Positions 10,375-39,654 are shown, numbered from the stretch's first letter. The stretch is 39,654 bases of DNA from Acidobacteriota bacterium (GCA_021731095.1 JAKFYA010000251.1:1-39654); one strand, 5' to 3'. Notes: a model not told the origin generated them from the letters alone. Made by a program: numbers and translations.

Positions 10375-11366
10375 CGCGAGGGTCCCGGCTCGGACGGGGC
10401 CTGACCTGAGGCTACCGGACGACTCTGGCGCGCAACGAGGGCGCGATACTCGCGGATCAGCAGGTCGAGATGCTCCCGCTCTTCGGCCGCAAACTCGAGG
10501 AAGATCTGCTTGCCCTCAGAGTCCTCGAACCGCTCGCCATACTTGCGGAAAAAACGATGCGAACCCCGCTCGCAGCGGATACCGATGAGCAGCGCGTGCT
10601 GGTCGTCGACACCGCGGACCAGCTCTTCCGCACCTCGCGCAAACAGGCCGTGGGCCGCGCCCTTGAAGAAGAGGAATGTCGGGCGCGAATCAAGAAGGGG
10701 ATCGCGCGCGAGCAGTTCTTCATAGCGCCGCTCCAGCGTGGTGAGGTGATGCGCTTCCTCTTCGGCGAGCTTGCGGAACACCTCGCGACCGCGTTCGTCG
10801 CGGGTGATGGTGGCCGCGCGTGAGTAGAACTCCAGCCCACTGCGTTCGGTGGCGATGGCAATGCGCAGGGCGTCCCTGGCAAAGACCAGCTCCGTGTGTT
10901 CGTGGTCGTGGTCGTGCTCGTGTCCGTCTGTGGGCGGCCGCTCGCCGGCCTGGCACTGCTCGCACGTGCCATAAATCTGCACGACGCTCTGCGCCATTGC
11001 AAAACCACGCGCCTGTGCCACCTCCTCGACGATCGACTCGATGTCGGAGCTGAGGAACTCGAAGGATCGGCTGCAGCTCTTGCAGATGAGATGGTAGTGA
11101 CGAGGGTGGCGATAGGACGGCTCATACCGAGACCGCCCTTCGCCGAAATCAACTTTCCTGGCAATGCCCGCGTCCACCATCCACTGCAGCGTGCGGTAGA
11201 CGGTGGCGCGGCTGATGCGCCCATCTGCGCTCCGGATCCGATCAAACAGATCGTCGGCGCTCAGATGGCCCTCCTGACGGAGGAAGACGTTCAGAATCTG
11301 CTCGCGCTTGCTGGAGCGTTTGCCCCCAGCCGGCTTCAGATCGTGAACGTCCGGAAAGGTAGACAA
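10371..11366 (-). CDS. Fur-family transcriptional repressor fused to a C-terminal rubrerythrin/ferritin-like di-iron domain (331 aa)
   Basis: - Fur part, aa 1-140: winged-helix RISRATVYRTLQWMVDAG plus HLICKSC...CEQC structural Zn-site motifs.
- Linker, aa 147-157: DGHEHDHDHEH.
- C-terminal part: four-helix-bundle motifs E(RSG), EEEAHH, E(RGS) and EEREH. Confidence 0.8.
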   Translation of the reverse strand: MSTFPDVHDLKPAGGKRSSKREQILNVFLRQEGHLSADDLFDRIRSADGRISRATVYRTLQWMVDAGIARKVDFGEGRSRYEPSYRHPRHYHLICKSCSRSFEFLSSDIESIVEEVAQARGFAMAQSVVQIYGTCEQCQAGERPPTDGHEHDHDHEHTELVFARDALRIAIATERSGLEFYSRAATITRDERGREVFRKLAEEEAHHLTTLERRYEELLARDPLLDSRPTFLFFKGAAHGLFARGAEELVRGVDDQHALLIGIRCERGSHRFFRKYGERFEDSEGKQIFLEFAAEEREHLDLLIREYRALVARQSRPVASGQAPSEPGPSR

Positions 11367-25511: not shown

Positions 25512-25627
25512 CGAAGCTCTCCAAGACTATGTCGTACGCCTACGGTACTGTAGCGCGGGCCGGGTCCTAAAGCACGCAATAAAGGCAAGCAGCCGTTGAT
25601 GGCATCATGTGGGGCGAGGAGCCGTCC

Positions 25628-27028
25628 ATGTTCACCCGTTCGCATCTGCGCGCGCTGACCGCCACGTTCTGTCTCGGGATTGTCCTGCTGTCGACCGGAG
25701 TCTCGGCACAGTCACCCACGCCGGTCGCCCCCCCCAAGAACAAGTACAAGCCGGCTGACGACGTCCGCCTGGGACGCGAGGCCGCCCAGGAGATCCTGAA
25801 GCAGACGCCGCTCCTCACCGACGCGTCTCTGCACGGCTACCTCGAACAGCTCGGCCGGCGCCTGGTGGGCGTGATTCCGGTCCCGCTCCAGCAGAAGGAG
25901 TTCGTGTACACCTTCGACGTGGCGGACATGGCCGACCTGAACGCCTTTGCCCTGCCAGGCGGACCGATGTTCGTCCACCGCGGCATCATGAAGGCCTCGA
26001 AGAACGAGGGCGAGCTGATTGGCGTGATGGCGCACGAGCTGAGCCACGTCATCCTCCGCCACGGCACGGCGCAGCAGACCAAGGCCGAAAAGTTCCAGCT
26101 TGGCGCACTCGCCGGGCAGGTCATTGGCTCGGTGGTCGGAGGTGCGGCCGGCAGTCTCATCGCGCAGGGCTCGAGCTTCGGCGTCAATACCTACTTCATG
26201 AAGTTCAGCCGCGACCACGAAAAGCAGGCCGACATTCTCGGCGCGCAGCTGATGGCGAAGGCCGGCTACGACCCGCGCGACATGGCGTCCATGTTCCGCA
26301 CACTCGAAAAGGAAGGCGGCCCGAGTGGCCCGCAGTGGCTGAGCAGCCACCCCAACCCAGGGAATCGCGCCGTCTACATCACGGCAGAGGCACAGGCCCT
26401 GAAGGTCGCCGAGGGGTTGCGACCCAACGCCGCGGCCTTCGCAGCCATGCAGACCCGGCTTGCGTCGCTCCCGCCAGCGGCCGGGCCCAGAAAGGCCGCC
26501 GCTGCGCCCGCCGCGACAACTTCACCCAGACCTGCCACCTCCATCGAGCCGCCATCGTCGCAGTTCCGCGGCTATCGGGCGCCGTCGGGCCTGCAGATCA
26601 GCGTGCCGGCCAACTGGCAGCCGCCAGCCGGCGGCTCCGCCCTGATGTTCGCCCCACAAGGCGCGTTCTATCAGCAGGGCAACAGCACGGGCTTCACCCA
26701 CGGTGTCGAGGCTGGCATTTCGACCAGCCAGAACGCGGATCTCCAGCGCGACACACAGGCCTTGCTGCAGGGACTGATGCAGACCAACCCGAAGCTGCGG
26801 CTCAACGGCGGCTACCAGTCCACGGCAGTCGGTGGACGACCGGGCCTGGCGGCGACCCTGTCGAACCTGTCAGAGGTGACCGGGCAGCCGGAGTACATCG
26901 CGGTCTTCACGACGCGCCTCCGCGACGGGAACCTGTTCTACCTGATCGGCGTGGCGCCCGACGCCCAGGCTGGTCAGTATGTCGATGCGTTCGCCCGGGT
27001 GCGCACGTCGCTGAAACTCAACGACTGA
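25628..27028 (+). CDS. secreted M48-family zinc metallopeptidase with uncharacterised C-terminal domain
   Basis: Signal peptide MFTRSHLRALTATFCLGIVLLSTGVSAQ and the HELSH zinc motif in GVMAHELSHVILRHG. Confidence 0.85.
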   Translation: MFTRSHLRALTATFCLGIVLLSTGVSAQSPTPVAPPKNKYKPADDVRLGREAAQEILKQTPLLTDASLHGYLEQLGRRLVGVIPVPLQQKEFVYTFDVADMADLNAFALPGGPMFVHRGIMKASKNEGELIGVMAHELSHVILRHGTAQQTKAEKFQLGALAGQVIGSVVGGAAGSLIAQGSSFGVNTYFMKFSRDHEKQADILGAQLMAKAGYDPRDMASMFRTLEKEGGPSGPQWLSSHPNPGNRAVYITAEAQALKVAEGLRPNAAAFAAMQTRLASLPPAAGPRKAAAAPAATTSPRPATSIEPPSSQFRGYRAPSGLQISVPANWQPPAGGSALMFAPQGAFYQQGNSTGFTHGVEAGISTSQNADLQRDTQALLQGLMQTNPKLRLNGGYQSTAVGGRPGLAATLSNLSEVTGQPEYIAVFTTRLRDGNLFYLIGVAPDAQAGQYVDAFARVRTSLKLND

Positions 27029-28823
27029 CCACCGGGCTCCCAGCCGGAACGCCGGCCGGAAGGGTCGCCCGGGCTGGCACCGGGCGGCGCTCGCCGATCT
27101 GCTGGCGCCACATCGCGTAGTAGAGACCCTTCTGCTCGAGCAGGGCCGCATGGCTGCCCGACTCAATGACCCTGCCCTGCTCCAGGACGAAGATCCGGTC
27201 GGCGTGCATGATGGTCGACAGTCGGTGCGCGATGAGGATGGTCATCACGTCCTGACTGGCGGCCACTTCGCGGATGGTGGCGCCAATCTCTTCCTCCGTC
27301 AGCGAATCGAGCGACGACGTCGCCTCGTCGAAGACCAGCAGGTGCGGGTGCCGCAGCAGCGCCCGCGCAATCGAGAGGCGCTGTTTCTCGCCTCCCGACA
27401 CCTTGACGCCGCCTTCGCCAATCACCGTGTCTAGTCCCTGACTCGCCCGCGCGAGCAGCGTGTCACAGGCCGCCTTGCGGAGCACCGCCAGGCAGTCCTC
27501 GTCGGTGGCAGTGGGATTCACGAACAGCAGGTTCTCCCGGATGCTCCCGGCAAACAGCTGGGTGTCCTGGGTGACGAAGCCGATGCGCTCGCGCAACTGG
27601 TTCAGGTCCACGGTCGCCGCGTCGTGGCCGTTGTAGAGAATGCGCCCGGCCTGGGCCGGATAGAGCCCCACCAGCAATTTGACCAGCGTCGTCTTGCCTG
27701 CCCCTGACGGGCCGACAAACGCCACCGTATCTCCCTGACGCAGGTCGAACGAGATGTCGGTCAGCGCCGGAGACGATGCCGTCTGATGGGTGAAGCCGAC
27801 ACCCTGGAACGCCAGCGTCCGGAGTTCCGGCACCGCCGCGGGGTTGTCCGGCCGCGGCTCGACCGGCATGGCCAGAATGTCCTCGAAGTTCTTCAGCGAC
27901 ACTTCGGCTTCGCGGTAGATGTTGATGATGTTGCCCAGCTCCTGCAGCGGGCCGAAGATGAAGAACGAGTAGATGAACAGCGAGAAGAACTGGCCGACGG
28001 TGATCTCCCGGGCAAAGATCAGATAGAGCATCAGGAACAGGATGCTCGTGCGCAGGAAATTGACAGTGGTGCCCTGAATGAAGCTGAGGCTGCGGATGTA
28101 GCGCACCTTCTTCAGCTCAAGCTGGAGAATCCGGTCCGTGGTGGTATTGAGCCGGGCAATCTCCTGCGCCGCCAGGCCCAGGCTCTTCACCAGCTCGATG
28201 TTCCGGAGCGACTCGGTGGTGGACCCGGCCAGCGCGGTCGTCTCGGCCACGATGACCTTCTGGATCGTCTTGATCTTCCGGCTCAGCACGGAGCTCAGCA
28301 CGCCCAGCACCGGCACGGTGAGGAAGTACACCGGCGCGATGGCCCAGTGCACCGTGAAGGCATAGCTCACGACGAAGATGATGCCCACCAGCGAGGTGAA
28401 GAGGATGCTGATGGACGCGGCAATCAGCTTCTCGACATCAGCCCGCACCTTCTGGAGCTTGCCCAGGGTTTCTCCGCTCCGCTGGTCCTCGAACACCGCA
28501 TAGGGCAGCTCGAGCGAGTGGCTGATGCCATCCGAATAGATCCGGGCCCCGATCCGCTGCGTGATGACGTTGATGAAGTAGTCCTGGAAGTTCTTGGCCA
28601 CGCGTGACACGAAGGCCACGCCGACCGCCGCCGCCAGCAGCAGGCTGACGCCCCGGAAGAAGTCACGGGTCGAATACTGGTCGAAGCGGGTGGCGTACTC
28701 GTCGATGACGTGCCTGAAGATCAGCGGGTCAAGCAGCGAGAAGACCTGGTTGATGGCCGCCAGGACCAGCGCCAGCGTCACCAGGCGCCAGTAGTCCTTC
28801 AGATAGGCGAGCAGCAGTCTCAT
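27018..28823 (-). CDS. ABC exporter half-transporter (fused TMD-NBD, MsbA-like topology), 601 aa
   Basis: Six-helix TMD followed by GPSGAGKTT, VSGGEKQRLSIARAL, LLVFDEATSSLD and IAHRLST. ATG 28823 (MRLLLAYLKDYW); the track ORF extension to 29654 is rejected. Confidence 0.9.
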   Translation of the reverse strand: MRLLLAYLKDYWRLVTLALVLAAINQVFSLLDPLIFRHVIDEYATRFDQYSTRDFFRGVSLLLAAAVGVAFVSRVAKNFQDYFINVITQRIGARIYSDGISHSLELPYAVFEDQRSGETLGKLQKVRADVEKLIAASISILFTSLVGIIFVVSYAFTVHWAIAPVYFLTVPVLGVLSSVLSRKIKTIQKVIVAETTALAGSTTESLRNIELVKSLGLAAQEIARLNTTTDRILQLELKKVRYIRSLSFIQGTTVNFLRTSILFLMLYLIFAREITVGQFFSLFIYSFFIFGPLQELGNIINIYREAEVSLKNFEDILAMPVEPRPDNPAAVPELRTLAFQGVGFTHQTASSPALTDISFDLRQGDTVAFVGPSGAGKTTLVKLLVGLYPAQAGRILYNGHDAATVDLNQLRERIGFVTQDTQLFAGSIRENLLFVNPTATDEDCLAVLRKAACDTLLARASQGLDTVIGEGGVKVSGGEKQRLSIARALLRHPHLLVFDEATSSLDSLTEEEIGATIREVAASQDVMTILIAHRLSTIMHADRIFVLEQGRVIESGSHAALLEQKGLYYAMWRQQIGERRPVPARATLPAGVPAGSPVVSR

Positions 28824-28850
28824 GGTGATAGCATTAAACCATTGAAAAAC

Positions 28851-31487
28851 ATGGTCTTGTCTGACCGTGACGCAATGACCTCGCCCACCGGTTCCCGCAC
28901 CAACGGCAAATTCCTCGACGTGGATGGCCGGCGCTTCCTGGTCAAGGGCGTCACCTACGGCACGTTCGCCCCGGACGCGACCGGAGGCCAGTTTCCAACG
29001 CTGGCACAGATCGACCGCGACTTCGGCCTGATGGCCGCTGCAGGTGTGAACACGGTCCGCGTGTACACCGTCCCCGCTCCCGAGTTGCTGGATACGGCCG
29101 CCAGCCACGGCCTGCGCGTCATGATTGGGGTGCCCTGGGCCCAGCACATCGCCTTTCTGGGCGACCCGGCCCTGACCCGGAGCATCCGCGAACAGGCCGC
29201 CACCACCGTCCGGACTCTGGCCAGTCATCCCGCCACGCTGATGTTTGCGGTCGGCAACGAGATTCCGGCCTCTGTGGTGCGCTGGCACGGCCAGGAGCAG
29301 ATCGAGCGTTTCCTCGGCGAGCTGTATGACGCCTGCAAGCAGGCCGCGCCGGACAGCGTCCTCACCTACGTCAACTTTCCGCCCACCGAATATCTCGACC
29401 TCGAGTGCTTCGACGTCTGCAGTTTCAACGTCTATCTGCACCGGGAAGCCGACCTGCGTGCCTATCTGGCCCGGCTGCAGCACCGGGCCGGCTACAAGCC
29501 GCTGCTGCTGGCCGAGGCTGGCGCCGACAGCATTCGCGAGGGTCTGGACGGCCAGGCGCGCATCACGGCCAATCACATCCGCGCGGCGTTCGAGGAAGGC
29601 GCCTGCGGCGCCGTTGCCTTTGCGTGGACCGACGAGTGGTGGCGCGGTGGACACACTGTTGAGGACTGGTCCTTCGGACTCGTGGACGTGGCCCGTGAGC
29701 CGAAGCCGGCCCTGCCCGCCGTCTCCGCGGCATTTGCCCAGGCCCCCTTCTCAGACGAGGCGCGCGCGACCTGGCCCAGGACATCCGTCGTGGTCTGCGC
29801 GTACAACGCGGCGGACACCATCGACGACTGCCTGGCATCGCTCGAACAGCTCACCTACCCGAACGTCGAACTGATCGTGGTCAACGACGGCTCGAAGGAC
29901 GCCACGGGCACCATCGCGCGCCGGTATCCGACGGCCCACGTCATCGACATTCCGAATGGCGGCCTTAGTGCCGCGCGCAACGTGGGTCTGGCCCACGCGA
30001 CCGGCGAGTATGTCGCCTACACGGACGCCGATGTCCGGGTGGACCCTGACTGGCTGACCTATCTGGTGCAGCCCATGTTGTCAGGCGCGTTCGCCGGCTC
30101 GGGCGGTCCCAACGTGGTGCCACCGGAGGACGACTGGGTTGCCCAGTGCGTGGCCCGCTCACCGGGCGGCCCGACCCACGTCCTGCTCGACGACCGGGTG
30201 GCCGAGCACGTGCCTGGCTGCAACATGGCCTTCCGGCGCGACGCGCTCAATTCGATTGGCGGCTTCAACCCGGTCTACCTCCGCGCCGGCGACGACGTGG
30301 ACATCTGCTGGCGCCTCCAGGCGCGCGGTCTCCGCATCGGCTTTGCGCCGTCCGCTCTGGTCTGGCACCACCACCGCGCCACCGTCTCGGCCTACTGGCG
30401 TCAGCAGGTCGGATATGGCGAAGGCGAGACCTGGCTCGACGCACACCACCCCGAGAAGTTCGTTGGCGGCCAGGCAACGTGGCGCGGGCACATCTACAGC
30501 CCGCTGCCGTTTCTCCGCTCCTTCAAGGGCAGCCGCGTGAACACCGGCGTCTGGGGCACCGCCGCCTTCCCGTCCATCTACAGCGACGACGCCTACCGTC
30601 TGGAATATCTGCCGCACACGCCGCTCTGGCTGGGCGTCTCGCTGGCGCTCATCCTGGGTGGCGCGGTCGGTGTCGGTTTCCGCGAGGTCTTCGGCCTGTT
30701 GGCCCTGCTGGCCGGCCTTGGCGGCTGGGCCACCACCATCTCCCGGTGCATCACGTTCGCCCGGCGCTCGAACCTGCATGGCCTCCCGGACATCGGCACC
30801 CGGACGCACGCCCAGAGCCGGCTGATGTATCAGGGCCTGATCGCCTGGCTCCACATCATTCATCCGCTCGCGCGCCTGCGGGGCCGGCTGCGCGGCATGG
30901 CCGAGATGCCCCATGCCGTGTCCTCCGAGCACGTCATGCGACGGCCCTGGAAGATACCCTTCCCCTTGCCGGACGACCTCCGCCGCGCTGCCAACCTCAT
31001 TCTGTGCCGCACCGACGAGCGCGCCTTCTGGAGCGAGAACTGGGTGGCCCATGGCGAGGTACTGACCGAGCTCATCGGCGTGCTGCGTGCCGCACGGCCT
31101 GCACCGGTCATCGATGTGGACGAGGGCTGGCGGCAGGACCGCGACATCAGCCTGGCCGTCGGCCGCTGGGGCTGGCTGCACGTCAGCGCACTGGTCGAGG
31201 AGCACGCCGCTGGCAAGTGCCTCTTCCGCATCGCCACCCGCCTGCGCCTCAGCTTCATTGGCACCCTGCAGGCGCTGAGCGTCGCGCTGCTGCTCTCCTT
31301 CGGCAGCGTCGCGCTGATGTCGCTGCATCGCCCCTCCGGCCGCCTGCTCTCGGCGGTGGCCTTCGGCGTCCTGGCTATCCGCACGGCCTGGCAGACCATC
31401 CGCATCACGGCTGTCCTCGACCGCGCCATTCTGCGTACGGTTGGCGCGTCCGGCATGATGCCACTTCCCCCGACGCCGAAGGCCTGA
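28851..31487 (+). CDS. three-part fusion: clan GH-A (TIM-barrel) glycoside hydrolase-like domain, family-2 glycosyltransferase, and a C-terminal membrane region (878 aa)
   Basis: - GH part: VGNEIP (E137, nt 29259-29261) and LLAEAG (E222, nt 29514-29516).
- GT2 part: VVVCAYNAADTI, NDGSKD, YTDADV, GDDVDICWR and YWRQQVGYGEGE.
- Hydrophobic helices at roughly nt 30625-30745 and 31265-31400.
The start at 28851 is uncertain; 28875 is the alternative. Confidence 0.8.
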   Translation: MVLSDRDAMTSPTGSRTNGKFLDVDGRRFLVKGVTYGTFAPDATGGQFPTLAQIDRDFGLMAAAGVNTVRVYTVPAPELLDTAASHGLRVMIGVPWAQHIAFLGDPALTRSIREQAATTVRTLASHPATLMFAVGNEIPASVVRWHGQEQIERFLGELYDACKQAAPDSVLTYVNFPPTEYLDLECFDVCSFNVYLHREADLRAYLARLQHRAGYKPLLLAEAGADSIREGLDGQARITANHIRAAFEEGACGAVAFAWTDEWWRGGHTVEDWSFGLVDVAREPKPALPAVSAAFAQAPFSDEARATWPRTSVVVCAYNAADTIDDCLASLEQLTYPNVELIVVNDGSKDATGTIARRYPTAHVIDIPNGGLSAARNVGLAHATGEYVAYTDADVRVDPDWLTYLVQPMLSGAFAGSGGPNVVPPEDDWVAQCVARSPGGPTHVLLDDRVAEHVPGCNMAFRRDALNSIGGFNPVYLRAGDDVDICWRLQARGLRIGFAPSALVWHHHRATVSAYWRQQVGYGEGETWLDAHHPEKFVGGQATWRGHIYSPLPFLRSFKGSRVNTGVWGTAAFPSIYSDDAYRLEYLPHTPLWLGVSLALILGGAVGVGFREVFGLLALLAGLGGWATTISRCITFARRSNLHGLPDIGTRTHAQSRLMYQGLIAWLHIIHPLARLRGRLRGMAEMPHAVSSEHVMRRPWKIPFPLPDDLRRAANLILCRTDERAFWSENWVAHGEVLTELIGVLRAARPAPVIDVDEGWRQDRDISLAVGRWGWLHVSALVEEHAAGKCLFRIATRLRLSFIGTLQALSVALLLSFGSVALMSLHRPSGRLLSAVAFGVLAIRTAWQTIRITAVLDRAILRTVGASGMMPLPPTPKA

Positions 31488-31492
31488 CCGGC

Positions 31493-33316
31493 ATGCGGGA
31501 GTTCTCCTGGAGCCTCGCGTTTCTCAGGCCGTATCGAGTCCGGGTGTTCGGCATTGCCGCGCTCGCCCTGGTCGAAATTGGTCTGGCCGCGCTGGCGCCC
31601 TGGCCGATGAAGGCCATCGTCGACAACGTCTTCGGCCGCCAGCCGTTCCCACCCGCGCTGGCCGGGCCGGTCAACACGCTCACTGGCGGACGCGTGGTAG
31701 CGTTGCTCATCGTCGTGGCGCTGGCCGGCCTGCTGCTGCAGCTCCTCCTCGAAGTCGTGCGCGCCGTACATACGCAGATTCAGGTGGATACAGGCCAGCG
31801 CATCGTGTACGACCTGCGCGGGCGGCTGCTCGAGCATCTGCAGGCCCTGCCGCTCAGGCACCACGTGCTGGGTCGCACCGCCGACAGCGTCTACCGCCTC
31901 GACGCAGACGCGTACTGCGTCAACGACCTGGTCATCGGCGGCGTTTTCCCGCTGGCCACGGCGGCCCTGAACCTGACGGTCATGTTTGCGGTGCTGGCAC
32001 GGCTCGATACACCGCTCGCCCTGCTGTCCCTGGCCGTGGCACCGTTCCTCTATGTCTCGCTGCGGTACTACTCGCGCACGATGACCGATCGGGCCGAACA
32101 GGTGAAGTCGCGCGAGTCCACACTGGTCGAGCGGGCGTACGAAATCCTGTCCTCCATCGCCGCCATCAAGAGCTTCGCCCGCGAGCGTCACGAACTGTCG
32201 CGCTTCGCGCGCACCGGCAACGACACGATGGCCGCACGCCTGACGCTCACGTGGCAGGAGTCGCTCTTCTCCGTGTGCGTCACGGCCATCACCCTGACCG
32301 GGACGGCCCTGGTGCTGGTGGTCGGCGGGCTTCACGTCATCGACGGCACCCTGACCGTGGGCGGGCTTCTGGTCGTCATCGCCTATCTGGCGGCCGTCTA
32401 CAACCCGTTGTCTTCCATCGCGCACACCACCGGCGCCCTGCAGCAGGCGCGCGTCAGCGCGCGCCGCGTGCAGGAACTGCTGGCGCTGGCGCCCGAACAG
32501 CTTGACGCGCCTGACGGTGTGGATGCCGCTGGCATCGCCGGCCACATCGAGTTCAAGGATGTGGGCTTTGCCTACGACGCCAGCCGGCAGATCCTCGATC
32601 AGATCAGCTTCGTGGCCCATCCGGGCGAAATGGTGGCGCTGGTCGGCCTGACCGGCGCAGGCAAGACCACCCTTGCCAGCCTGATTCCGCGCTTCTTCGA
32701 ACCGACGCATGGCCAGGTGCTGATAGATGGCGTCGAGGTGCAGCGCTATCGCCTGCGCTCGTTGCGCGAACGCATCGCGCTGGTGCCACAGGAATCGGCC
32801 CTCTTCGGCGGCACCATCGGCGACAACATCCGGTACGGCCGGCTCGACGCCACAGACGCGGACGTCGAGGCTGCCGCCCATCTGGCCCACGTCCACCACT
32901 TCATCGAGCGTCTGCCCGGTCGCTACGACACGCCGGTGGCCGAAGCCGGGGCGACGCTCTCGGGCGGCGAACGTCAGCGTCTCGGCATTGCCCGCGCCCT
33001 GCTGAAGAACGCGCCCATTCTCATCCTCGACGAACCGACGTCCTCGCTGGACGCCATCTCCGAGGATGCCGTGTTCCAGGCGCTGCGGCGTCTGCGCGAG
33101 GGCCGCACGACCATCGTCATCGCGCACCGGCTCTCCACCATCCGCGATGCCGACCGCATCCTCGTGCTGCACGAAGGGCGCGTCATGGCCCAGGGGACGC
33201 ACGACGAGCTGACCGCCTCCAACGAACTGTACCGCCGCATGTGTGCCCGACTCTCCGTGGGCCGTTCGCTCGACGAACCAGAGTCCGTGGACGAGATGCT
33301 GAAGGCGCTGGCGTGA
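31493..33316 (+). CDS. ABC exporter half-transporter (fused TMD-NBD), 607 aa
   Basis: GLTGAGKTT, LSGGERQRLGIARAL, ILILDEPTSSLD and IAHRLST. Sits 5 nt after the upstream stop. Confidence 0.9.
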   Translation: MREFSWSLAFLRPYRVRVFGIAALALVEIGLAALAPWPMKAIVDNVFGRQPFPPALAGPVNTLTGGRVVALLIVVALAGLLLQLLLEVVRAVHTQIQVDTGQRIVYDLRGRLLEHLQALPLRHHVLGRTADSVYRLDADAYCVNDLVIGGVFPLATAALNLTVMFAVLARLDTPLALLSLAVAPFLYVSLRYYSRTMTDRAEQVKSRESTLVERAYEILSSIAAIKSFARERHELSRFARTGNDTMAARLTLTWQESLFSVCVTAITLTGTALVLVVGGLHVIDGTLTVGGLLVVIAYLAAVYNPLSSIAHTTGALQQARVSARRVQELLALAPEQLDAPDGVDAAGIAGHIEFKDVGFAYDASRQILDQISFVAHPGEMVALVGLTGAGKTTLASLIPRFFEPTHGQVLIDGVEVQRYRLRSLRERIALVPQESALFGGTIGDNIRYGRLDATDADVEAAAHLAHVHHFIERLPGRYDTPVAEAGATLSGGERQRLGIARALLKNAPILILDEPTSSLDAISEDAVFQALRRLREGRTTIVIAHRLSTIRDADRILVLHEGRVMAQGTHDELTASNELYRRMCARLSVGRSLDEPESVDEMLKALA

Positions 33317-34431
33317 AGATCGTCCTTGCGGGCATCATTGCCCGCTATCCGTACGGTGGCGTCACGTGGTGCTCGCTGATGTACCTGCTCGGCCTGCGAG
33401 CGCTGGGCCACGAGGTCTGCTACATCGAAGACACAGGGGAGTGCGTCTACGATCCGGTGCAGAACGCCATCTCGACAGACCCGGCCTACGGCACCACCTA
33501 CATTCACCAGTCGCTGGAACCGTTCGGTCTCGGCGACCGCTGGAGCTTCGTCAACTACGACGGGTCCTACCACGGCGCATCCCGCGAGACCGTGCGCCGC
33601 TGGTGCGCCGATGCGGACCTCTTCGTGAACCTGTCGGGCGGCTCGTGGTTCTGGCGCGACGAGTACGCCGCCATCCCGCGCAAGGTCTTCATCGACTCGG
33701 ACCCGGTGTTCACGCAGCTCGCCATTGCCAAGGGTGAGGCCTGGTACGTCGACTTCTTCCGCAGGTTCGACCATCACTTCACCTTCGGCGCCAACATCGG
33801 CACCCCTGCCTGCGCGGTGCCGACCGGCGGCTTCACCTGGCACCACACCTGGCAACCGGTGGTGATGGACCAGTGGGCGAACTCCACCCCACCCGGTGAC
33901 CGCTTCTCGACGGTGATGACCTGGAAGATCGAGAGCTTTGCCGATGTGGGCGGCAACAAGGATCAGGAGTTCGTGCGCTTCATCGACCTCCCGTCGCGCA
34001 CGCCGAGCCGGTTCGAGCTGGCGATCAACGGCCCCCAGGCCCTGCTACAGCAGCATGGATGGGCCACCGTGGATGCGATGGGCGTCTCGCGCTCCCTCTG
34101 GGACTATCGCGCCTTCATCCAGCGGTCCCGTGCCGAGTTTGGCGTGGCCAAGCACACCTACGTCGCGCATCGCTCCGGGTGGTTCAGCGACCGGACCGCG
34201 TGCTATCTGGCCGCCGGGCGCCCCGCGCTCGTGCAGGACACCGGGTGGAGCGCACATCTTCCCGCCGGCACGGGGCTGCTGGCCTTCTCGAATCCCGAGG
34301 AGGCCCTGGACGGCCTGGCGCGCATCGAGGCCGACTACGACGCGCACGCCCGCGCGGCGCTGGCCATCGCGCACGAGCACTTCGATGCCGCGGTGGTGCT
34401 GCCGCGCCTGCTGGAGACGGCATGTCAGTAG
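33313..34431 (+). CDS. uncharacterised protein, possibly GT-B fold / CgeB-like (372 aa)
   Basis: GTG start overlaps the ABC stop (GTGA). The N-terminus KIVLAGIIARYPYGGVTW...GHEV and the C-terminal SDRTACYLAAGRPALVQDTG are reminiscent of GT-B Rossmann halves. I cannot name a family with confidence. Confidence 0.5.
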   Translation: MKIVLAGIIARYPYGGVTWCSLMYLLGLRALGHEVCYIEDTGECVYDPVQNAISTDPAYGTTYIHQSLEPFGLGDRWSFVNYDGSYHGASRETVRRWCADADLFVNLSGGSWFWRDEYAAIPRKVFIDSDPVFTQLAIAKGEAWYVDFFRRFDHHFTFGANIGTPACAVPTGGFTWHHTWQPVVMDQWANSTPPGDRFSTVMTWKIESFADVGGNKDQEFVRFIDLPSRTPSRFELAINGPQALLQQHGWATVDAMGVSRSLWDYRAFIQRSRAEFGVAKHTYVAHRSGWFSDRTACYLAAGRPALVQDTGWSAHLPAGTGLLAFSNPEEALDGLARIEADYDAHARAALAIAHEHFDAAVVLPRLLETACQ

Positions 34432-35468
34432 ACCGACCGCTGCGCATTGCCCAGGTGGCACCCGTGGCGCAGCCCGTTCCGCCCCCGCGTTCGGGTTCCA
34501 TCGAGACCCTGACGGCACTCCTGACCGATGGGCTGGTGGCCCGCGGCCACGACGTCACGCTGTTTGCCACCGGCGGGTCGCGCACCAGTGCCCGGCTCCA
34601 CGCGGTGTACCCCAAGGGGTATCGCGAGAACCCGGCGCTGTGGCCCTGGGAGCTGTGCGAGCTGTTCAATCTCTCGGCGGCGGTGGAACGCGGCGCGCAG
34701 TTCGACATCATCCACTACCAGGCCGAGTACTCGCCGCTCTCGCTGGCCTACGCCGGCCTGTCGGTCGCCCCGGTTCTCCAGACCATCCACCACATGCCAA
34801 CGGAGTCGGAGGTCGCTCTCTGGCGCCAGTATCCGGAGGCCCCCTTCGTGGCCATCTCCCACGAACAGGCCAGGGCACTCACCGGACTGCGCGTGACCGG
34901 CGTGGTCCATCACGCTGTCGACACCAGCATCTACACGTTTCAGCGCGACCCGCAGGACTACCTCCTGTTCCTCGGACGGTTCACCGAAGGCAAAGGGGTC
35001 CTCCGCGCCATCGAAGTGGCCCGTCAGACCGGACACCGCCTGATCATCGCGGCTGCCGAGAACGACTACTACCGCGAGCACGTGGCTCCGCTGGTGGACG
35101 GACGACAGATTGTCTATGTCGGCGAAGTGGAACTGCGGGAGAAGGTGGCGCTGCTCGGCGGCGCCCGCGCGCTGCTCTACCCGGTGCAGGCCGGCGAGCC
35201 GTTCGGCCTGGTGCTGGCCGAGGCGATCGCCTGCGGGACGCCAGCCGCCGCCCTGCGACTGGGCGCCGTCGGTGAGTTGATCGACGACGGTCTCACCGGC
35301 ATGGCCTTCTCGTCGCTGGACGAGCTGGTGCACGGCCTTCCCCAGGTGCTGGCACTCGATCGCGCGGCGGTGCGTACCCAGGCGGTCGCACGGTTCGGCG
35401 TGAGCCGGATGGTCGACGAATACGAGGCGACCTACCGCGCCCTGACGACGGCCGGGAGCCGGCTGTGA
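34422..35468 (+). CDS. GT4-family (GT-B, retaining-type) glycosyltransferase
   Basis: LRIAQVAPVAQPVPPPRSGSIE...GHDVTLFA N-terminus and the EPFGLVLAEAIACGTP nucleotide-sugar binding motif. 10-nt overlap with the upstream gene. Confidence 0.85.
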   Translation: MSVDRPLRIAQVAPVAQPVPPPRSGSIETLTALLTDGLVARGHDVTLFATGGSRTSARLHAVYPKGYRENPALWPWELCELFNLSAAVERGAQFDIIHYQAEYSPLSLAYAGLSVAPVLQTIHHMPTESEVALWRQYPEAPFVAISHEQARALTGLRVTGVVHHAVDTSIYTFQRDPQDYLLFLGRFTEGKGVLRAIEVARQTGHRLIIAAAENDYYREHVAPLVDGRQIVYVGEVELREKVALLGGARALLYPVQAGEPFGLVLAEAIACGTPAAALRLGAVGELIDDGLTGMAFSSLDELVHGLPQVLALDRAAVRTQAVARFGVSRMVDEYEATYRALTTAGSRL

Positions 35469-36253
35469 CGGCCACTGCAGGCACACGGCCCGATGCCGGA
35501 CGGTCGCTGCTCGCCGTCTTCGCCCATCCGGATGACGAGTCCATCGCCTGCGGCGGTCTCCTCGCGTGGTGCGCTGACCGTGGTGCCCGCGTGTCGGTGC
35601 TGTGCGTGACCCGTGGCGGCTACGGCGCCGGTGACACGGCGCCGGCACATCAGGCCCGTCGGACCGCCGAGCTTCAGGCGGCCGCGGAGCACCTCGGCCT
35701 GGCGGAGGTGGACGTGCTCGACTACCGGGACGGCTATCTGCCCTGGGAGGACCGCCCGGCGCTGGTCCAGGACATCCGCTCGACCATCGCACGCCTGCAG
35801 CCGGAGGTGGTGGTGACCTTCGGCGCGGACGGGCTCTACTGGCACCCGGACCACATCGCCGTACACGAGGCCACCACGGCCGCCGTCGGCGCCCTCGGGT
35901 CTCAGGCCCCGGCACTCTTCTACGTCACGTCTCCACCGGGCCAGATGCGGCTCGTCCTGGACGCGGCACTGGCCGCCCACTCGCGGCGGTCCGAGGGCCA
36001 CGCGCCCCGGAGTATTCTCGGCATCACGGCTGTGGAGGCCTTCGGCTCGCACGCGGAACCCCCGACGCTGGTGGTGGATGCCACGGCCTATGCCGCCCGG
36101 AAACTCGCCGCGCTGCGGTGCCACCAGACGCAACTGGCTGGCGACGCGCTGGACCTGCTCCCCGGTGACCAGGCGCATCTGCTGGGCGTGGAGCACTACC
36201 ACCGGGCCGCGACCGGCGCCACCGGGGTCACTTTCATCGAGCGACTTGCCTGA
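35465..36253 (+). CDS. PIG-L / LmbE-family de-N-acetylase
   Basis: AVFAHPDDES and HPDH zinc-site motifs. GTGA overlap with the upstream gene. Confidence 0.85.
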   Translation: MTATAGTRPDAGRSLLAVFAHPDDESIACGGLLAWCADRGARVSVLCVTRGGYGAGDTAPAHQARRTAELQAAAEHLGLAEVDVLDYRDGYLPWEDRPALVQDIRSTIARLQPEVVVTFGADGLYWHPDHIAVHEATTAAVGALGSQAPALFYVTSPPGQMRLVLDAALAAHSRRSEGHAPRSILGITAVEAFGSHAEPPTLVVDATAYAARKLAALRCHQTQLAGDALDLLPGDQAHLLGVEHYHRAATGATGVTFIERLA

Positions 36254-37524
36254 TGCACATCACGCTGCTGGACCTGCTGCGCTGCCCGTTCTGCGGGGGA
36301 CGCCTCACCCTGGAAGACAACGCCGCACTGACACGCACCGGCGATGAGGTGGACACCGGCGTGGTCTGGTGCGAGTGTTGCGCCTTTCCGGTGGTCGGCG
36401 GCATCCCGGTGATGCGCGCCGACGACACGACGCGCCGGGCTATCCACCAGCTCGAGGCCGGCGACCACGCCGAGGCACTGGCCACGATGCTCGACGTCGG
36501 CGACGAGCGACGCGCGGACTTCGACGCGCTGCTGGCGCGAGGCGCGGCCGCCACCTACCAGGACGCCATCGCCGTCCTGAGCCCGGACCCGGAGGGCACC
36601 TATTTCGTCTACCGGTTCTCCGACCCGACCTTTGTCATGGCCGACGCGGTGCTGCGGGCGCTGGCCCAGGCTCCTGGCGCCTATGCGGGGCGGGTGCTCG
36701 ACATCTGCGGCGGGTCCGGACACCTGACGCGCACGCTGTGCGCCCTGCGGCCTGACCACGAGGTGGTGCTGGCCGACATGTTCTTCTGGAAGCTCTGGCT
36801 GGCCCGCACCATCACGGCGCCGCGGTGCCAGCCGGTGTGCTGCGATGGCAACCAGCCGCTGCCCTTCGCCCGCGGGAGCTTTCCCGCCGTCGTGCTGTCC
36901 GATGCCTTCCCCTACATCTGGCAGAAGCGCATGCTGGCCGAGGAGATGATGCGCGTGGCCGGCGACGACGGGCTGGTGGTGATGCCGCATCTGCACAGCT
37001 CGCTTGGCGAGAACTTTTCCGCCGGGATGACGCTGACGCCCGAGTCCTACCGGAATCTGTTCCTCGCACTGGAGCCGCGCCTGTTCGCCGACCAGGCGCT
37101 GCTGACGCAGGCCATCGAGGGGCGCGGGCTGGACCTCAGCCGTCCGCAGTCCCCGGAGGAGCTCGGGCACGAGCCCTCCTTCACGCTGATTGCCACGCGC
37201 CAGTCGCGCGTGTTCCGCCACTACGAACCGCTCTCGCCGGGACTGGTGGCGGGCGTGTTGCGCGTGAACCCGCTGTACGAGGTGACGCGCCGGGGCTGGG
37301 CGACAGAGCTGACCCTGCGGTTTCCCAACGAGGAATACGCGGAGGAGTTCGGCGAGTGCCGGCGCTATCTGCCCGACACGCTGACGCTCGACGTCGACCT
37401 GACCGGGCCCCTCGCGGACGCCGGGGCGCTGTCCCGCATTGATGACCTGCGCCGGCGTCGGGTGCTGCTGGACGTGCCGACGCGCTATTGTGGCGGCGCC
37501 GACAGGGCGGCCACCGGGTCGTAG
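36253..37524 (+). CDS. Trm112-like zinc-ribbon fused to a class I SAM-dependent methyltransferase, plus a ~170-aa C-terminal extension
   Basis: LLRCPFCGG...WCECCAFPVVGGIPVM (Trm112/UPF0434-like) followed by motif I VLDICGGSGHL. TGATG junction with the upstream gene. Confidence 0.75.
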   Translation: MHITLLDLLRCPFCGGRLTLEDNAALTRTGDEVDTGVVWCECCAFPVVGGIPVMRADDTTRRAIHQLEAGDHAEALATMLDVGDERRADFDALLARGAAATYQDAIAVLSPDPEGTYFVYRFSDPTFVMADAVLRALAQAPGAYAGRVLDICGGSGHLTRTLCALRPDHEVVLADMFFWKLWLARTITAPRCQPVCCDGNQPLPFARGSFPAVVLSDAFPYIWQKRMLAEEMMRVAGDDGLVVMPHLHSSLGENFSAGMTLTPESYRNLFLALEPRLFADQALLTQAIEGRGLDLSRPQSPEELGHEPSFTLIATRQSRVFRHYEPLSPGLVAGVLRVNPLYEVTRRGWATELTLRFPNEEYAEEFGECRRYLPDTLTLDVDLTGPLADAGALSRIDDLRRRRVLLDVPTRYCGGADRAATGS

Positions 37525-38633
37525 GGGGACACCGAGCCGATGTGACGGCCCACCCACTCCTGAATCACGACGTCAGGATGCTCGGCCTCGATGGTGGGCA
37601 GGTCGACATTGCTCTGCCAGAGATACACGGCCCGACTGAAATGCTCTGACAGAAACGGCACCAGCGCGGACCCGAACGAGTCCCGGAACACGACCGCACG
37701 CGGCAGCGCGCCGTCCCGGGTGGTCACAATGCGCTCCACTTCGTCGGTCGGCCGTGTCTCCGGCGGCTCCACGACGCGTGCGTGCCGCGGTTCGCGCGGC
37801 ACCAGCACCAGGTCCTCCTCGCGCAGCACGCTGCGCAACCCCAACAATCTTGCCAGGTCCTTGCCAGGCACCATGACGCTGCGCGCCTCGAATTCCAGGC
37901 GGCCCTTGGTCGGCACGCCGCCGGAGAGGCGCAGGCTGTCCATGATCTGCTGGTAGGCGAAGAACGCGCCGCGCGCGTTCCAGTGCGTATCGGTCCGGTG
38001 GTACAGGCGATCGAAGGCCTTGGCCGCCGCCATCGGCAGCCGTGGGTCGACCACGGTCACCGTTGAGCGCTCGCGGAGGTAGGTCACGAGCTGATCGATA
38101 CGCGTGGTCGCACCGATGCGCTGGATCCCGGCGGGCAGGTACTCGGGGTAGAGCACATGCTTGTCGGGCCCGATCACGAACACGAAGCGCACGCCCCGGG
38201 CGGCCAGCCAGTCGTGCGTGTGCTGGAGGGTCAGCCGCCACGCCTCCAGCTCCGCCGTCGTCATGGGTGGGTCTGCAGCAAAGTCGGCGACCGACTCCTC
38301 GTCGGCATAGAACAGCCACCCGTCGCGTCCCAGCATCACGTCCCGCGTGGTGGCCGTGTGGAGCCCCTTCACGCGCAGCAGGGCCTGCCACCGCACCAGA
38401 GGCGTACGGAACGCGAAGTGATCGGCGAAGTACCGGGTGAAGCCCTCGGGCCAGGCCGCCAGGTCCGCCCAGGTCAGACTGACGGCCGGGAACGGCGCCG
38501 GCTTCCGGTGCTCCTCGGTCAGGGCCGCGCGTCCGATCCCGGCAACCGTGCCGACCAGCGGCACGGCCAGCGCCAGCACAAAGAGCACCACCAGCAGCCC
38601 GTCCAGACGTCGCGTGAGGTGTGGCAGGTCCAT
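37485..38633 (-). CDS. AlgJ/AlgX-like (SGNH-like, DTHW motif) polysaccharide O-acetyltransferase, N-terminally anchored
   Basis: TM anchor LLVVLFVLALAVPLV, the HRTDTHWN motif and FRDSFG. The stop lies 40 nt inside the converging methyltransferase gene. Confidence 0.75.
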   Translation of the reverse strand: MDLPHLTRRLDGLLVVLFVLALAVPLVGTVAGIGRAALTEEHRKPAPFPAVSLTWADLAAWPEGFTRYFADHFAFRTPLVRWQALLRVKGLHTATTRDVMLGRDGWLFYADEESVADFAADPPMTTAELEAWRLTLQHTHDWLAARGVRFVFVIGPDKHVLYPEYLPAGIQRIGATTRIDQLVTYLRERSTVTVVDPRLPMAAAKAFDRLYHRTDTHWNARGAFFAYQQIMDSLRLSGGVPTKGRLEFEARSVMVPGKDLARLLGLRSVLREEDLVLVPREPRHARVVEPPETRPTDEVERIVTTRDGALPRAVVFRDSFGSALVPFLSEHFSRAVYLWQSNVDLPTIEAEHPDVVIQEWVGRHIGSVSPYDPVAALSAPPQ

Positions 38634-38634
38634 C

Positions 38635-39654
38635 TCAGAACCGGAAGTAGATGAACGGGCTGAAGGCCCCGGCAGCGACCTGCGTCAGAGACGCGCCAAA
38701 CAGCGCGGCGAGCGCCACGACGACGGCGGCCGCCCACCCGGCCGGCAGCACACGCGCCTCGCGGCCACCTGCGGTGGCAGTGGACAGTCGCGCAAGCAGG
38801 CGCGGCACGATCGGCGTGGACCCGATGAGGGCGGCGGCGACCACGAGCAGCAGTTCGGGCGTGAGATACCAGGACGGGGCGAGCGCCGTCGGCGCGTGGC
38901 CGCCCGCACCGGCCATGGCCCGCAGCAGGTGCCACGCCTGCGTGACCGACCCGGCGCGGAAGAGCACCCAGCCGATCACAACGACGAGCAGCGTGTAGCC
39001 GCGTCCCACCACGACCGGCAGACGCTCCAGCCGCGCTCCGAGTCCCGCACGCTCCAGCACCAGGAAGAGGCCGTGCAGCAGCCCCCAGAGCACGAACGTC
39101 CAGCTGGCACCGTGCCAGAGGCCGCACAGGAAGAAGATGGTGACGAGGTTGAGATACACCCGTCCCGTCGAGCGACGATTGCCGCCGAGCGGGATGTAGA
39201 CGTAGTCGCGGAACCAGGACGAGAGCGAGATGTGCCATCGTCGCCAGAAGTCCTGCATGGACGTGGCCGCGTAGGGATACCGGAAGTTCTCCGGGAAGGT
39301 GAACCCGAACATGTGCCCCAGACCGATGGCCATGTCCGAGTAGCCCGAGAAGTCGAAATAGATCTGCAGCGTGTAGCAGATCGCACCAATCCAGGCGTGG
39401 GCCGCCGAGACCTGATCGACCGGCATGCCGAAGATGGCATCTGCAGGGCCGCTGACCAACCCGGCGACCAGCGTCTTCTTGGCCAGACCGACGATGAAGC
39501 GGCGCACGCCGAGCGCGAAGCCGCTCTTCGTGTGGGTGCGCCTGCCGATCTGCGCGGCAATCTCCCGATACCGGATGATCGGACCGGCAATGAGCTGGGG
39601 AAAGAACAGCAGGTACAACGTGGCGCCGACGGGCCCCTTCTGGGCGACGGCCTG
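38635..39654 (-). CDS. MBOAT-family membrane O-acyltransferase (AlgI/PatA/DltB-like); 5' end outside the window
   Basis: FFPQLIAGPI and FWRRWHISLSSWFRDYVYIPLGGNR (conserved His). The frame stays open upstream of the track start to position 39654 (QAVAQKGPVGATLYLLFF). A 1-nt gap separates it from the AlgJ-like gene. Confidence 0.85.
   Translation of the reverse strand, partial: QAVAQKGPVGATLYLLFFPQLIAGPIIRYREIAAQIGRRTHTKSGFALGVRRFIVGLAKKTLVAGLVSGPADAIFGMPVDQVSAAHAWIGAICYTLQIYFDFSGYSDMAIGLGHMFGFTFPENFRYPYAATSMQDFWRRWHISLSSWFRDYVYIPLGGNRRSTGRVYLNLVTIFFLCGLWHGASWTFVLWGLLHGLFLVLERAGLGARLERLPVVVGRGYTLLVVVIGWVLFRAGSVTQAWHLLRAMAGAGGHAPTALAPSWYLTPELLLVVAAALIGSTPIVPRLLARLSTATAGGREARVLPAGWAAAVVVALAALFGASLTQVAAGAFSPFIYFRF

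Follow-up and report, generated by a model that had tools for sequence, protein, structure and literature searches.

A conserved six-gene operon of Vicinamibacteria that may direct the assembly and export of an uncharacterized glycan

Introduction

Which of the genes crowded at the end of an acidobacterial contig belong together, and what do they make? The stretch of DNA analysed here (hereafter the window) is a 39,654-bp NCBI contig (JAKFYA010000251.1) of ~68% GC, and its nearest relatives are metagenome-assembled genomes (MAGs) labelled Acidobacteriota or Vicinamibacterales. Between positions 27018 and 39654 it carries nine open reading frames (ORFs) encoding glycosyltransferases, ABC transporters and enzymes of glycan modification, which an initial annotation had taken for a single locus of glycan assembly, modification and export. 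Vicinamibacteria are abundant soil bacteria, and their envelopes are almost unstudied.

We find that the conserved unit consists of a six-gene core (28851-37524) and an optional extracytoplasmic modification module. We propose, giving the proposal about an even chance, that the core is one operon, the Vicinamibacteria version of a widespread and uncharacterized pathway in which a glycan is assembled in the cytoplasm and then exported. We lean towards a conserved periplasmic or envelope oligo- or polysaccharide, in the manner of the osmoregulated periplasmic glucans (OPGs), and away from a variable capsule or O-antigen.

Results

Since spurious ORFs abound in DNA of 68% GC, GC content was examined by codon position. 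All nine ORFs carry a coding signature, with values of 0.85-0.91 at the third position (GC3) and 0.41-0.54 at the second (GC2), and their coordinates, as well as the spacer, gap and overlaps between them, are those of the initial annotation. Three of the window's proteins, looked up by exact sequence, had no entry on record. The core opens with the gene of an 878-residue fusion protein (28851-31487, plus strand, as are all six core genes), followed after a gap of 5 nt (31488-31492) by the gene of an ABCB-type (type IV) half-transporter exporter, ABC2 (31493-33316). The ABC2 gene overlaps by 4 nt (33313-33316) with that of a 372-residue glycosyltransferase of GT-B fold, hereafter the GT-B protein (33313-34431), which itself overlaps by 10 nt (34422-34431) with a GT4 glycosyltransferase gene (34422-35468). 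Four further nucleotides (35465-35468) are shared between the GT4 gene and that of a PIG-L/LmbE-family de-N-acetylase (35465-36253), and a single one (36253) between the latter and the gene of a protein that combines a Trm112-like Zn-ribbon with a class I S-adenosylmethionine (SAM)-dependent methyltransferase (36253-37524).

Species-representative genomes were scanned with the GT-B protein, which gave 326 matches confirmed by tblastn. The best 80 of the 326, together with three further loci, formed a synteny sample that was searched by tblastn with all nine window proteins; these 80 matches are 73-85% identical to the window's GT-B protein and nearly all labelled Acidobacteria or Vicinamibacteria. 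Sixty-five Vicinamibacteria loci were assessable for the core genes and for the ABC gene upstream of them, and 58 for the genes on the downstream side (AlgX-like, MBOAT and PF00884-type, see below). In 57 of the 65, the six plus-strand genes all occur, colinear and on a single strand; ABC2 immediately follows the fusion gene in relatives, and the GT4 gene is present in every assessable one. The eight exceptions comprise four loci without the methyltransferase gene, three without both the PIG-L and the methyltransferase genes, and one in which the fusion gene fell under the identity threshold. Such colinearity shows that the adjacency of the second to seventh of the nine genes is not due to chance.

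Histidine-biosynthesis genes are the neighbours of the operon in most relatives; in the present window this context is provided by ppc, prfA and argG. These housekeeping flanks, together with the 73-90% identity of the GT-B protein across relatives, argue against a hypervariable surface-antigen locus. Across the ~80 loci, the operon has no conserved companion that encodes a priming phosphoglycosyltransferase, a ligase or an outer-membrane exporter. A plasmid collection searched by tblastn contained only GT2-domain matches of less than 37% identity and no full-length homologue. Ten loci (L015, L022, L030, L037, L040, L063, L065, L075, L080 and L082) hold Vicinamibacteria-type copies of the operon, with GT-B proteins 74-79% identical to the window's, in genome records titled Bifidobacterium/Bifidobacteriaceae, Gemmatimonas, Longimicrobiales or "delta proteobacterium"; these bins are probably mislabelled or contaminated.

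The first core gene encodes an unusual association of domains: a TIM barrel of glycoside hydrolase (GH) clan A type at residues 18-300 (28902-29750), a GT2 catalytic domain of GT-A fold at residues 305-580 (29763-30590; PF00535) and a C-terminal membrane region (30618-31487). In Pfam, the barrel is recognized as GH2_C-type at residues 20-229 (33 bits) and GT2 at residues 309-602 (116 bits). Across Vicinamibacteria MAGs, relatives of the fusion are 64-76% identical. By phmmer, the GH domain matches GH158 (E = 1e-8) and LaGH157 (2e-8) at ~18-23% identity, and its top Foldseek matches are GH158 and the entries 9fz9/9g4n, the latter assigned to GH157 by their PDB titles alone; the GH158 enzymes near it include the endo-laminarinase BuGH158. 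The asparagine-glutamate acid/base motif of the domain aligns, and its E222 falls opposite E224 of LaGH157, which is the mutated position of the ligand complex 9g4n. In 37 homologues, neither E137 nor E222 varies, and N136 is almost invariant. The closest CAZy families thus appear to be GH157 and GH158, which are endo-beta-1,3-glucanases, in the sense of relatedness and not of family membership.

Hydropathy analysis found neither a signal peptide nor an N-terminal hydrophobic segment in the fusion, and no transmembrane (TM) helix between its GH and GT2 domains; both domains are therefore predicted to be cytoplasmic. The best NCBIfam match of the GT2 domain is MftF (TIGR03965), whose cutoff of 280 bits it misses with 161.7, and the domain exceeds the Pfam cutoff of GT21, a lipid glucosyltransferase family (44 vs 21.7 bits). 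In the same 37 homologues the invariant residues of GT2 are D346, D392-x-D394, GDDVD (480-484) and QQVGYG (518-523), the last in the position of the QxxRW of processive synthases. The hydrophobic segments (~590-631 and 800-826) all lie C-terminal to GT2, and AlphaFold places helices at residues 591-609, 613-639, 802-825 and 827-866, from which we infer a membrane region of two helical hairpins around an alpha/beta insert of ~160 residues. The "synthase-type" label of the initial annotation does not fit this architecture: with hydrophobic helices only at the C-terminus and QQVGYG in place of QxxRW, the enzyme is not of the BcsA or PgaC type, and its Foldseek TM-score to BcsA is ~0.2. Most Vicinamibacteria orthologues are longer (~1250 residues). 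Their C-terminal extension (residues 869-1255 in the orthologue P0023) adds a fifth TM helix and, behind it, an NHL beta-propeller that should therefore face outward. An NHL domain is absent from the window's fusion and from anywhere else in the window.

The GT-B protein has no match in Pfam or NCBIfam, though a few of its homologues touch PF13524. Against PDB sequences it gave no match as a single sequence and none below E = 0.01 as a profile. Its AlphaFold model (predicted local distance difference test (pLDDT) 85.5, predicted template modelling score 0.88) adopts a GT-B, GT4-like fold, matched by Foldseek at probability 1.0 and ~12% identity to the retaining GT4-type enzymes tll1591, ManT, PimA, BshA, MshA and HepE. 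Its sequence does not place it in GT4, and it is GT-B by fold alone. The model thus bears out the initial description of this ORF as GT-B-like, and Pfam agrees with all other domain assignments made at that stage.

The GT-B protein is the most conserved of the operon (76-90% identity over the best 120 clusters), and its family counts 3604 representative clusters library-wide (E <= 1e-3). Some members are fused in large proteins with ABC_membrane and ABC_tran, one or two GT2 domains, GT4, SAM methyltransferases and a sulfotransferase; one such fusion, from an Acidimicrobiales MAG, reaches 2148 residues, and a single-domain member 35% identical to the window's comes from Cyclobacteriaceae. These fusions independently link the enzyme families that are found together in the operon. 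With thousands of members and no model, solved structure or characterized representative, the GT-B proteins appear to make up a new family.

The remaining core proteins belong to larger families. ABC2, like the other ABC protein among the nine ORFs, is a fused PF00664 + PF00005 half transporter. Its similarity is generic, at the level of MsbA, Sav1866 and BmrA, and reaches no family cutoff: the top curated matches are MsbA-type lipid flippases, all below cutoff, the PDB matches are generic ABCB transporters, and NF010178, the model of NdvA-type glucan exporters, gives 364 bits where 733 are required, which does not exceed the scores of the MsbA models. The GT4 enzyme is recognized by the Pfam models Glycos_transf_1, Glyco_trans_1_4 and Glyco_transf_4 and has its EX7E motif at residues 259-267. 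The PIG-L protein matches PF02585 over the full model (116 bits), with HPDD at residue 21 and HPDH at residue 127; it scores below cutoff for BshB2 (86.7 vs 195 bits) and MshB (73 vs 224), and BshB1 is also among its best curated matches. The methyltransferase (Pfam Methyltransf_25 and Trm112p; NCBIfam Trm112_arch) shows a CPFC...CECC ribbon and an LDICGGSG motif, and its C-terminal half has no assignment. Every curated NCBIfam match of the locus proteins is far below its cutoff. Catalytic motifs are intact throughout: N136-E137 and E222 in GH, DxD and GDDVD in GT2, EX7E in GT4, HPDD and HPDH in PIG-L and the SAM motif in the methyltransferase. No catalytic domain of the six core proteins follows a signal peptide or TM helix, and all are thus predicted to be cytoplasmic.

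A profile built from distant GT-B members led to loci of other phyla (L084-L088), whose gene neighbourhoods were then read. Three of them (L084, L087 and L088) share one gene order, and two of the three are labelled Verrucomicrobia. These Verrucomicrobia-type loci encode an 865-884-residue protein with the same GH-type and GT2 Pfam domains as the fusion, convergent with two tandem GT-B paralogues. The Chloroflexi-labelled L085 and the unlabelled L086 encode an 867-870-residue GT2-family protein, which in L085 has a GH-type N-terminal domain by Pfam, along with two GT-B paralogues and a further glycosyltransferase; L085 also encodes GT2 and a TylF-type O-methyltransferase, and L086 a GT4. In both, an ABCB exporter is encoded, as is a separate propeller of PQQ/BamB-like type that a TM segment anchors at its C-terminus (L085:10065-11795; L086:16000-17694); the propeller of L085 has a clear signal peptide. 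The window genome has neither this nor the NHL form of propeller. The tandem GT-B paralogues have overlapping stop and start codons (L084:10001-12327, L087:10001-12306, L088:10001-12378, L085:3379-5665 and L086:10001-12293). The paired proteins may form a heterodimer or carry out two transfers in succession, and in the window's lineage GT4 may perform one of these transfers. Across phyla, the invariant pair is the fusion protein and the GT-B protein; whether an exporter, propeller, methyltransferase, GT4 or PIG-L is added to it depends on the lineage.

Two minus-strand genes converge on the core from the right. The first (37485-38633) encodes a membrane-anchored SGNH-like O-acyltransferase of AlgJ/AlgX/PatB type, with an ALGX domain (PF16822, 88.9 bits), a DTHW motif at residue 215 and a TM anchor at residues 6-38; its best matches to PDB sequences are AlgJ (3e-9) and Bacillus cereus PatB1 (1e-6). 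The second (38635-39654), cut at its 5' end by the end of the contig, encodes an MBOAT acyltransferase (PF03062, 120.6 bits; full-length orthologues 478-484 residues) whose best curated match is DltB, at 150 bits against a cutoff of 375. With both Pfam scores above cutoff, the D-x-H-W block and the N-terminal anchor, the pair has the features of an MBOAT + AlgJ/AlgX/PatB module, and it appears to be the only part of the locus that belongs to a known kind of system. The 3' ends of the methyltransferase and AlgX-like genes overlap by 40 nt (37485-37524), which leaves no space for an intergenic terminator between the core and accessory modules; the same convergent overlap is 10 nt in the loci L001 and L002.

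The AlgX-like and MBOAT genes adjoin the operon in 14 of the 58 assessable loci (~24%). A membrane protein with a "sulfatase"-type PF00884 domain is encoded in 15 of the 58; its 37-bit Pfam match stands alone, with no NCBIfam match and no useful PDB match. Its gene directly follows MBOAT in most loci with the AlgX-like and MBOAT pair, including the closest syntenic relatives, and it is expected just beyond the end of this contig, in line with the earlier suggestion that the locus continues there.

On the left, a second ABCB-type half transporter, ABC1 (27018-28823, minus strand; Pfam ABC_membrane and ABC_tran), diverges from the fusion gene across a spacer of 27 nt (28824-28850), or of 51 nt under the NCBI model of the fusion gene, which starts eight codons later at Met9 and gives a protein of 870 residues. 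No ABC1 orthologue (>=45% identity) lies upstream of the operon in any of the 65 loci, where the sole tblastn matches were cross-matches to ABC2 at 27-44% identity. ABC1 is therefore a bystander outside the conserved unit, and its gene may be a lineage-specific insertion between the housekeeping genes and the operon. The view of the nine genes as a single unit does not survive this comparison: ABC1 is found at that position in none of the 65 loci, the AlgX-like and MBOAT genes adjoin the core in a minority of those assessed, and PIG-L and/or the methyltransferase is missing from 7 of the 65. Gene-neighbourhood conservation, which the initial annotation had named as a check, upholds the adjacency of genes two to seven and fails for ABC1.

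The 3' end of the minus-strand ABC1 gene overlaps by 11 nt (27018-27028) with that of an M48 peptidase gene (25607-27028, plus strand). Elsewhere the window is of housekeeping character, with ppc, prfA, prmC, fumarase, argG-like, FUR, thiD-like and M48 peptidase genes among the 20 other ORFs scanned. None of these 20 is a Wzx, Wzy or Wza gene, a priming transferase, a CE4 deacetylase or a sugar-nucleotide gene, in agreement with the initial annotation. Two of the proteins encoded there are unrelated to the glycan operon: an unusual polypeptide in which Pfam finds a FUR-family regulator together with rubrerythrin domains (10371-11366, minus strand), and a 737-residue protein of typical YyaL type (4604-6817, minus strand), which has a DUF255 thioredoxin domain and a GH88-like match that is faint.

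Discussion

What could such an operon make? We suggest that the membrane-anchored GT2 domain would make a beta-linked chain, most likely a beta-glucan, because the GH domain fused to it is closest to the beta-1,3-glucanase families GH157 and GH158. The GH domain would trim, release or transglycosylate the chain, possibly cyclizing it, by analogy to the glycosidase and transglycosylase domains that play this role in the cyclic-glucan synthases NdvB and Cgs. The new GT-B enzyme and GT4 may add alpha-linked residues, one of them N-acetylglucosamine (GlcNAc), which PIG-L would turn into glucosamine (GlcN); the methyltransferase would add a methyl group, thereby modifying or capping the product, and an ABC2 homodimer would export it. 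Outside the cytoplasm, in this genome and in about a quarter of relatives, the MBOAT and AlgJ-like pair would O-acylate the product, to which the PF00884-type membrane enzyme may add a phospho-substituent. A hexosamine-containing product that is partly de-N-acetylated, methylated and O-acetylated is consistent with the enzymes present. We favour a periplasmic or envelope glycan because of the housekeeping context, the class-wide conservation and the lack of a conserved priming transferase, ligase or outer-membrane exporter.

Several points weigh against this proposal. Sugar specificity is not readable from these sequences. To our knowledge, the known periplasmic glucan systems have no GT4, PIG-L or methyltransferase, and their products are homoglucans. 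By its scores, ABC2 resembles glucan exporters no more than it does MsbA or drug pumps, and no ABC gene is adjacent in any of the three Verrucomicrobia-type loci. A periplasm of the conventional kind may be missing in Chloroflexi and Acidimicrobiales. The topology of the fusion is deduced from a model of mean pLDDT 71, low at residues 515-584, a stretch almost invariant in sequence, and in parts of the membrane region. Finally, the pathway as drawn leaves unexplained the extracytoplasmic beta-propeller of relatives, be it a fused NHL domain or a separate PQQ-like protein.

The products that rival a periplasmic glucan are best weighed against the same evidence. The main rival, though somewhat improbable in our estimate, is that the operon makes a lipoglycan or glycolipid, with GT4 or GT-B glycosylating a membrane lipid (a phospholipid or diacylglycerol), PIG-L de-N-acetylating the GlcNAc-lipid as in the PIG-A/PIG-L steps of glycosylphosphatidylinositol synthesis, GT2 extending it, the MsbA-like ABC protein flipping it, and the MBOAT/AlgJ-like pair and PF00884 decorating it as for lipoteichoic acid. 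Pairs of GT4 and PIG-L enzymes, such as MshA/MshB, BshA/BshB and PIG-A/PIG-L, act on early GlcNAc-alpha-X intermediates, and the fold matches of GT-B to PimA, BshA and MshA agree with such a scheme, as do the MsbA-type top matches of ABC2, the GT2 score above the GT21 cutoff, the match of MBOAT to DltB, and the presence of the module in a Chloroflexi-labelled locus and of the multidomain GT-B fusion in Acidimicrobiales. However, PIG-L is absent from 3 of the 65 loci and from those of other phyla, so that it makes no essential anchor; it is not obvious what the fused beta-glucanase-type domain would do on a glycolipid, the family scores are all far below cutoff and no lipid-binding feature has been demonstrated. 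The same set of enzymes could also serve an ABC-dependent exopolysaccharide or O-antigen-like polymer, in which GT-B and GT2 co-polymerize, the methyltransferase caps like WbdD, the glycosidase domain sets the length and O-acetylation occurs on export. The multidomain proteins of GT-B, GT2 and methyl- or sulfotransferases do resemble the polymerase/terminator proteins of ABC-dependent O-antigens, one Verrucomicrobia locus adjoins Wza/Wzc-type genes, and several homologues bear the JGI label "O-antigen biosynthesis protein". Yet the exporter is not of the ABC-2 type of Wzm/Wzt or KpsMT, the ~80 loci conserve none of the priming, ligation and outer-membrane export genes, and a very high conservation with a gene set fixed class-wide is atypical of surface-antigen loci, all of which makes such a polymer unlikely.

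Glycosylation of a small molecule, either a low-molecular-weight thiol ((N-methyl)bacillithiol) or a cofactor such as mycofactocin, followed by ABC export, would account for the best curated matches of PIG-L (BshB2, BshB1 and MshB) and of GT2 (MftF) and for the methyltransferase, and the CydDC-type thiol exporters are of the same ABC class. We consider this very unlikely: the scores are far below cutoff (86.7 vs 195, 73 vs 224 and 161.7 vs 280), neither a cysteine ligase (BshC/MshC) nor mycofactocin genes occur in the operon or its conserved flanks, and a membrane GT2 with a glucanase-type domain, an extra GT-B and a periplasmic O-acylation module would be left without a role. That the genes are unrelated and their adjacency fortuitous is true of the ABC1 gene alone, which relatives do not share at this position. 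For the core it is refuted by the synteny, with the six genes colinear in 57 of 65 loci; the real and translationally coupled overlaps, the fusion proteins that join the same families and the neighbouring fusion and GT-B genes of other phyla also speak against it.

A bolder form of the periplasmic-glucan proposal appears possible to us but doubtful. The fusion and GT-B proteins would define an unrecognized pathway of several phyla (Acidobacteriota, Verrucomicrobiota and Chloroflexota, with GT-B relatives in Actinomycetota and Bacteroidota), in which the cytoplasmic GH157/158-like domain cyclizes or releases the beta-1,3-type glucan of its own GT2, and the GlcN-bearing, methylated product is exported by the ABCB protein and handled outside by the beta-propeller. 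If true, glucans of the periplasm or envelope would gain a new class, and CAZy a new glycosyltransferase family.

A class-wide, highly conserved operon among housekeeping genes suggests a basic component of the envelope or periplasm and not a strain-specific coat. The GH-GT2 fusion could show how chain length or cyclization is controlled. Moreover, the operon offers a defined and testable gene set for a new bacterial glycan, and cultured relatives exist (Luteitalea and Vicinamibacter).

Comparison with known systems

Literature searches on the gene combination, on glycan clusters of Vicinamibacteria/Luteitalea and on GH157/9FZ9 found no description of the locus, and together with the low curated scores they sustain the view of the initial annotation that it matches no characterized polysaccharide system. 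The likeness is greatest in general logic to the cyclic-glucan systems Cgs/NdvB(ChvB) and Cgt/NdvA(ChvA) of Rhizobiaceae and Brucella, in which a cytoplasmic synthase with its own glycosidase/transglycosylase domain is served by an ABCB-type half-transporter and the product receives acyl or phospho substituents after export (PMC10514313). There, Cgs includes glycosidase-type domains of its own, the ABC protein Cgt exports what Cgs makes, and substituents are added to OPGs at a later stage by OpgB, OpgC and OpgE (PMC10514313). The present operon differs in having no GT84 or GH94 signal, in the combination of GT2 with a GH157/158-like domain, and in its extra GT-B, GT4, PIG-L and methyltransferase. 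ABC2 was considered as a Cgt/NdvA orthologue and rejected, its similarity being of the generic ABCB kind and not specifically Cgt-like.

A parallel to the fusion protein is the NdvB of Pseudomonas and Bradyrhizobium, an "Orphan" BcsA-like protein in which a GH17 beta-1,3-glucanosyltransferase domain is joined to GT2 and which was proposed to be a cyclic beta-1,3-glucan synthase (PMC10237404). Its model comprises a signal peptide, a periplasmic GH17 domain, seven TM helices and a cytoplasmic BcsA-like GT2 with QRxRW (PMC10237404). Both proteins unite a clan GH-A domain of the kind that acts on beta-1,3-glucan, a GT2 domain and a membrane region in one polypeptide. NdvB is ~870 residues long, similar to the fusion. 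In contrast to NdvB, the fusion has no PF00332 (GH17) match, no signal peptide and no TM helices between GH and GT2; its topology and Pfam matches led us to reject it as an NdvB orthologue.

The adjacent GT4 and PIG-L genes, with intact motifs, recall MshA/MshB, BshA/BshB and PIG-A/PIG-L and would imply the addition of GlcNAc and then its de-N-acetylation. Here, however, the proteins score far short of the equivalog cutoffs, the operon has neither a ligase gene nor an inositol or malate context, and the pair sits inside an operon with a membrane GT2 and an ABC exporter. The bacillithiol and mycothiol models gave 31 bits against 274 for BshA and 22 against 462 for MshA, with BshB2 and MshB also low; likewise, the GT2 domain falls short of MftF, and the window holds no mft genes.

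Unlike the synthases of the Bcs, Pga, Alg and Pel systems, GT2 is not flanked by a multi-helix channel, as its helices are C-terminal only, and it has no Q(Q/R)xRW motif. No Pfam domain of a cyclic di-GMP receptor, of a TPR/porin export component or of a periplasmic CE4 enzyme or lyase was found in the nine ORFs, the 20 other ORFs or the recurrent flanks. ABC-dependent O-antigen, capsule and teichoic acid systems differ by their ABC-2 transporters (Wzm/Wzt, KpsMT and TagGH), which are lacking here, as are phosphoglycosyltransferases in the scanned window ORFs and conserved flanks; nor did the scanned window ORFs include a Wzx flippase, a Wzy polymerase or PCP and OPX proteins. The accessory pair resembles AlgI/AlgJ/AlgX, WssH/WssI and PatA/PatB in joining MBOAT to a membrane-anchored SGNH-like protein with D-x-H-W, and differs in being attached, as an accessory and with no AlgF- or WssG-type partner seen, to a pathway that is neither of alginate nor of cellulose.

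All together, the locus appears to belong to none of the characterized polysaccharide systems compared. Its domain superfamilies are all familiar, and the logic of cytoplasmic assembly, ABC export and periplasmic decoration is known. What appears to be new is the conserved combination of genes, the cytoplasmic GH157/158-like::GT2 fusion and the large GT-B family.

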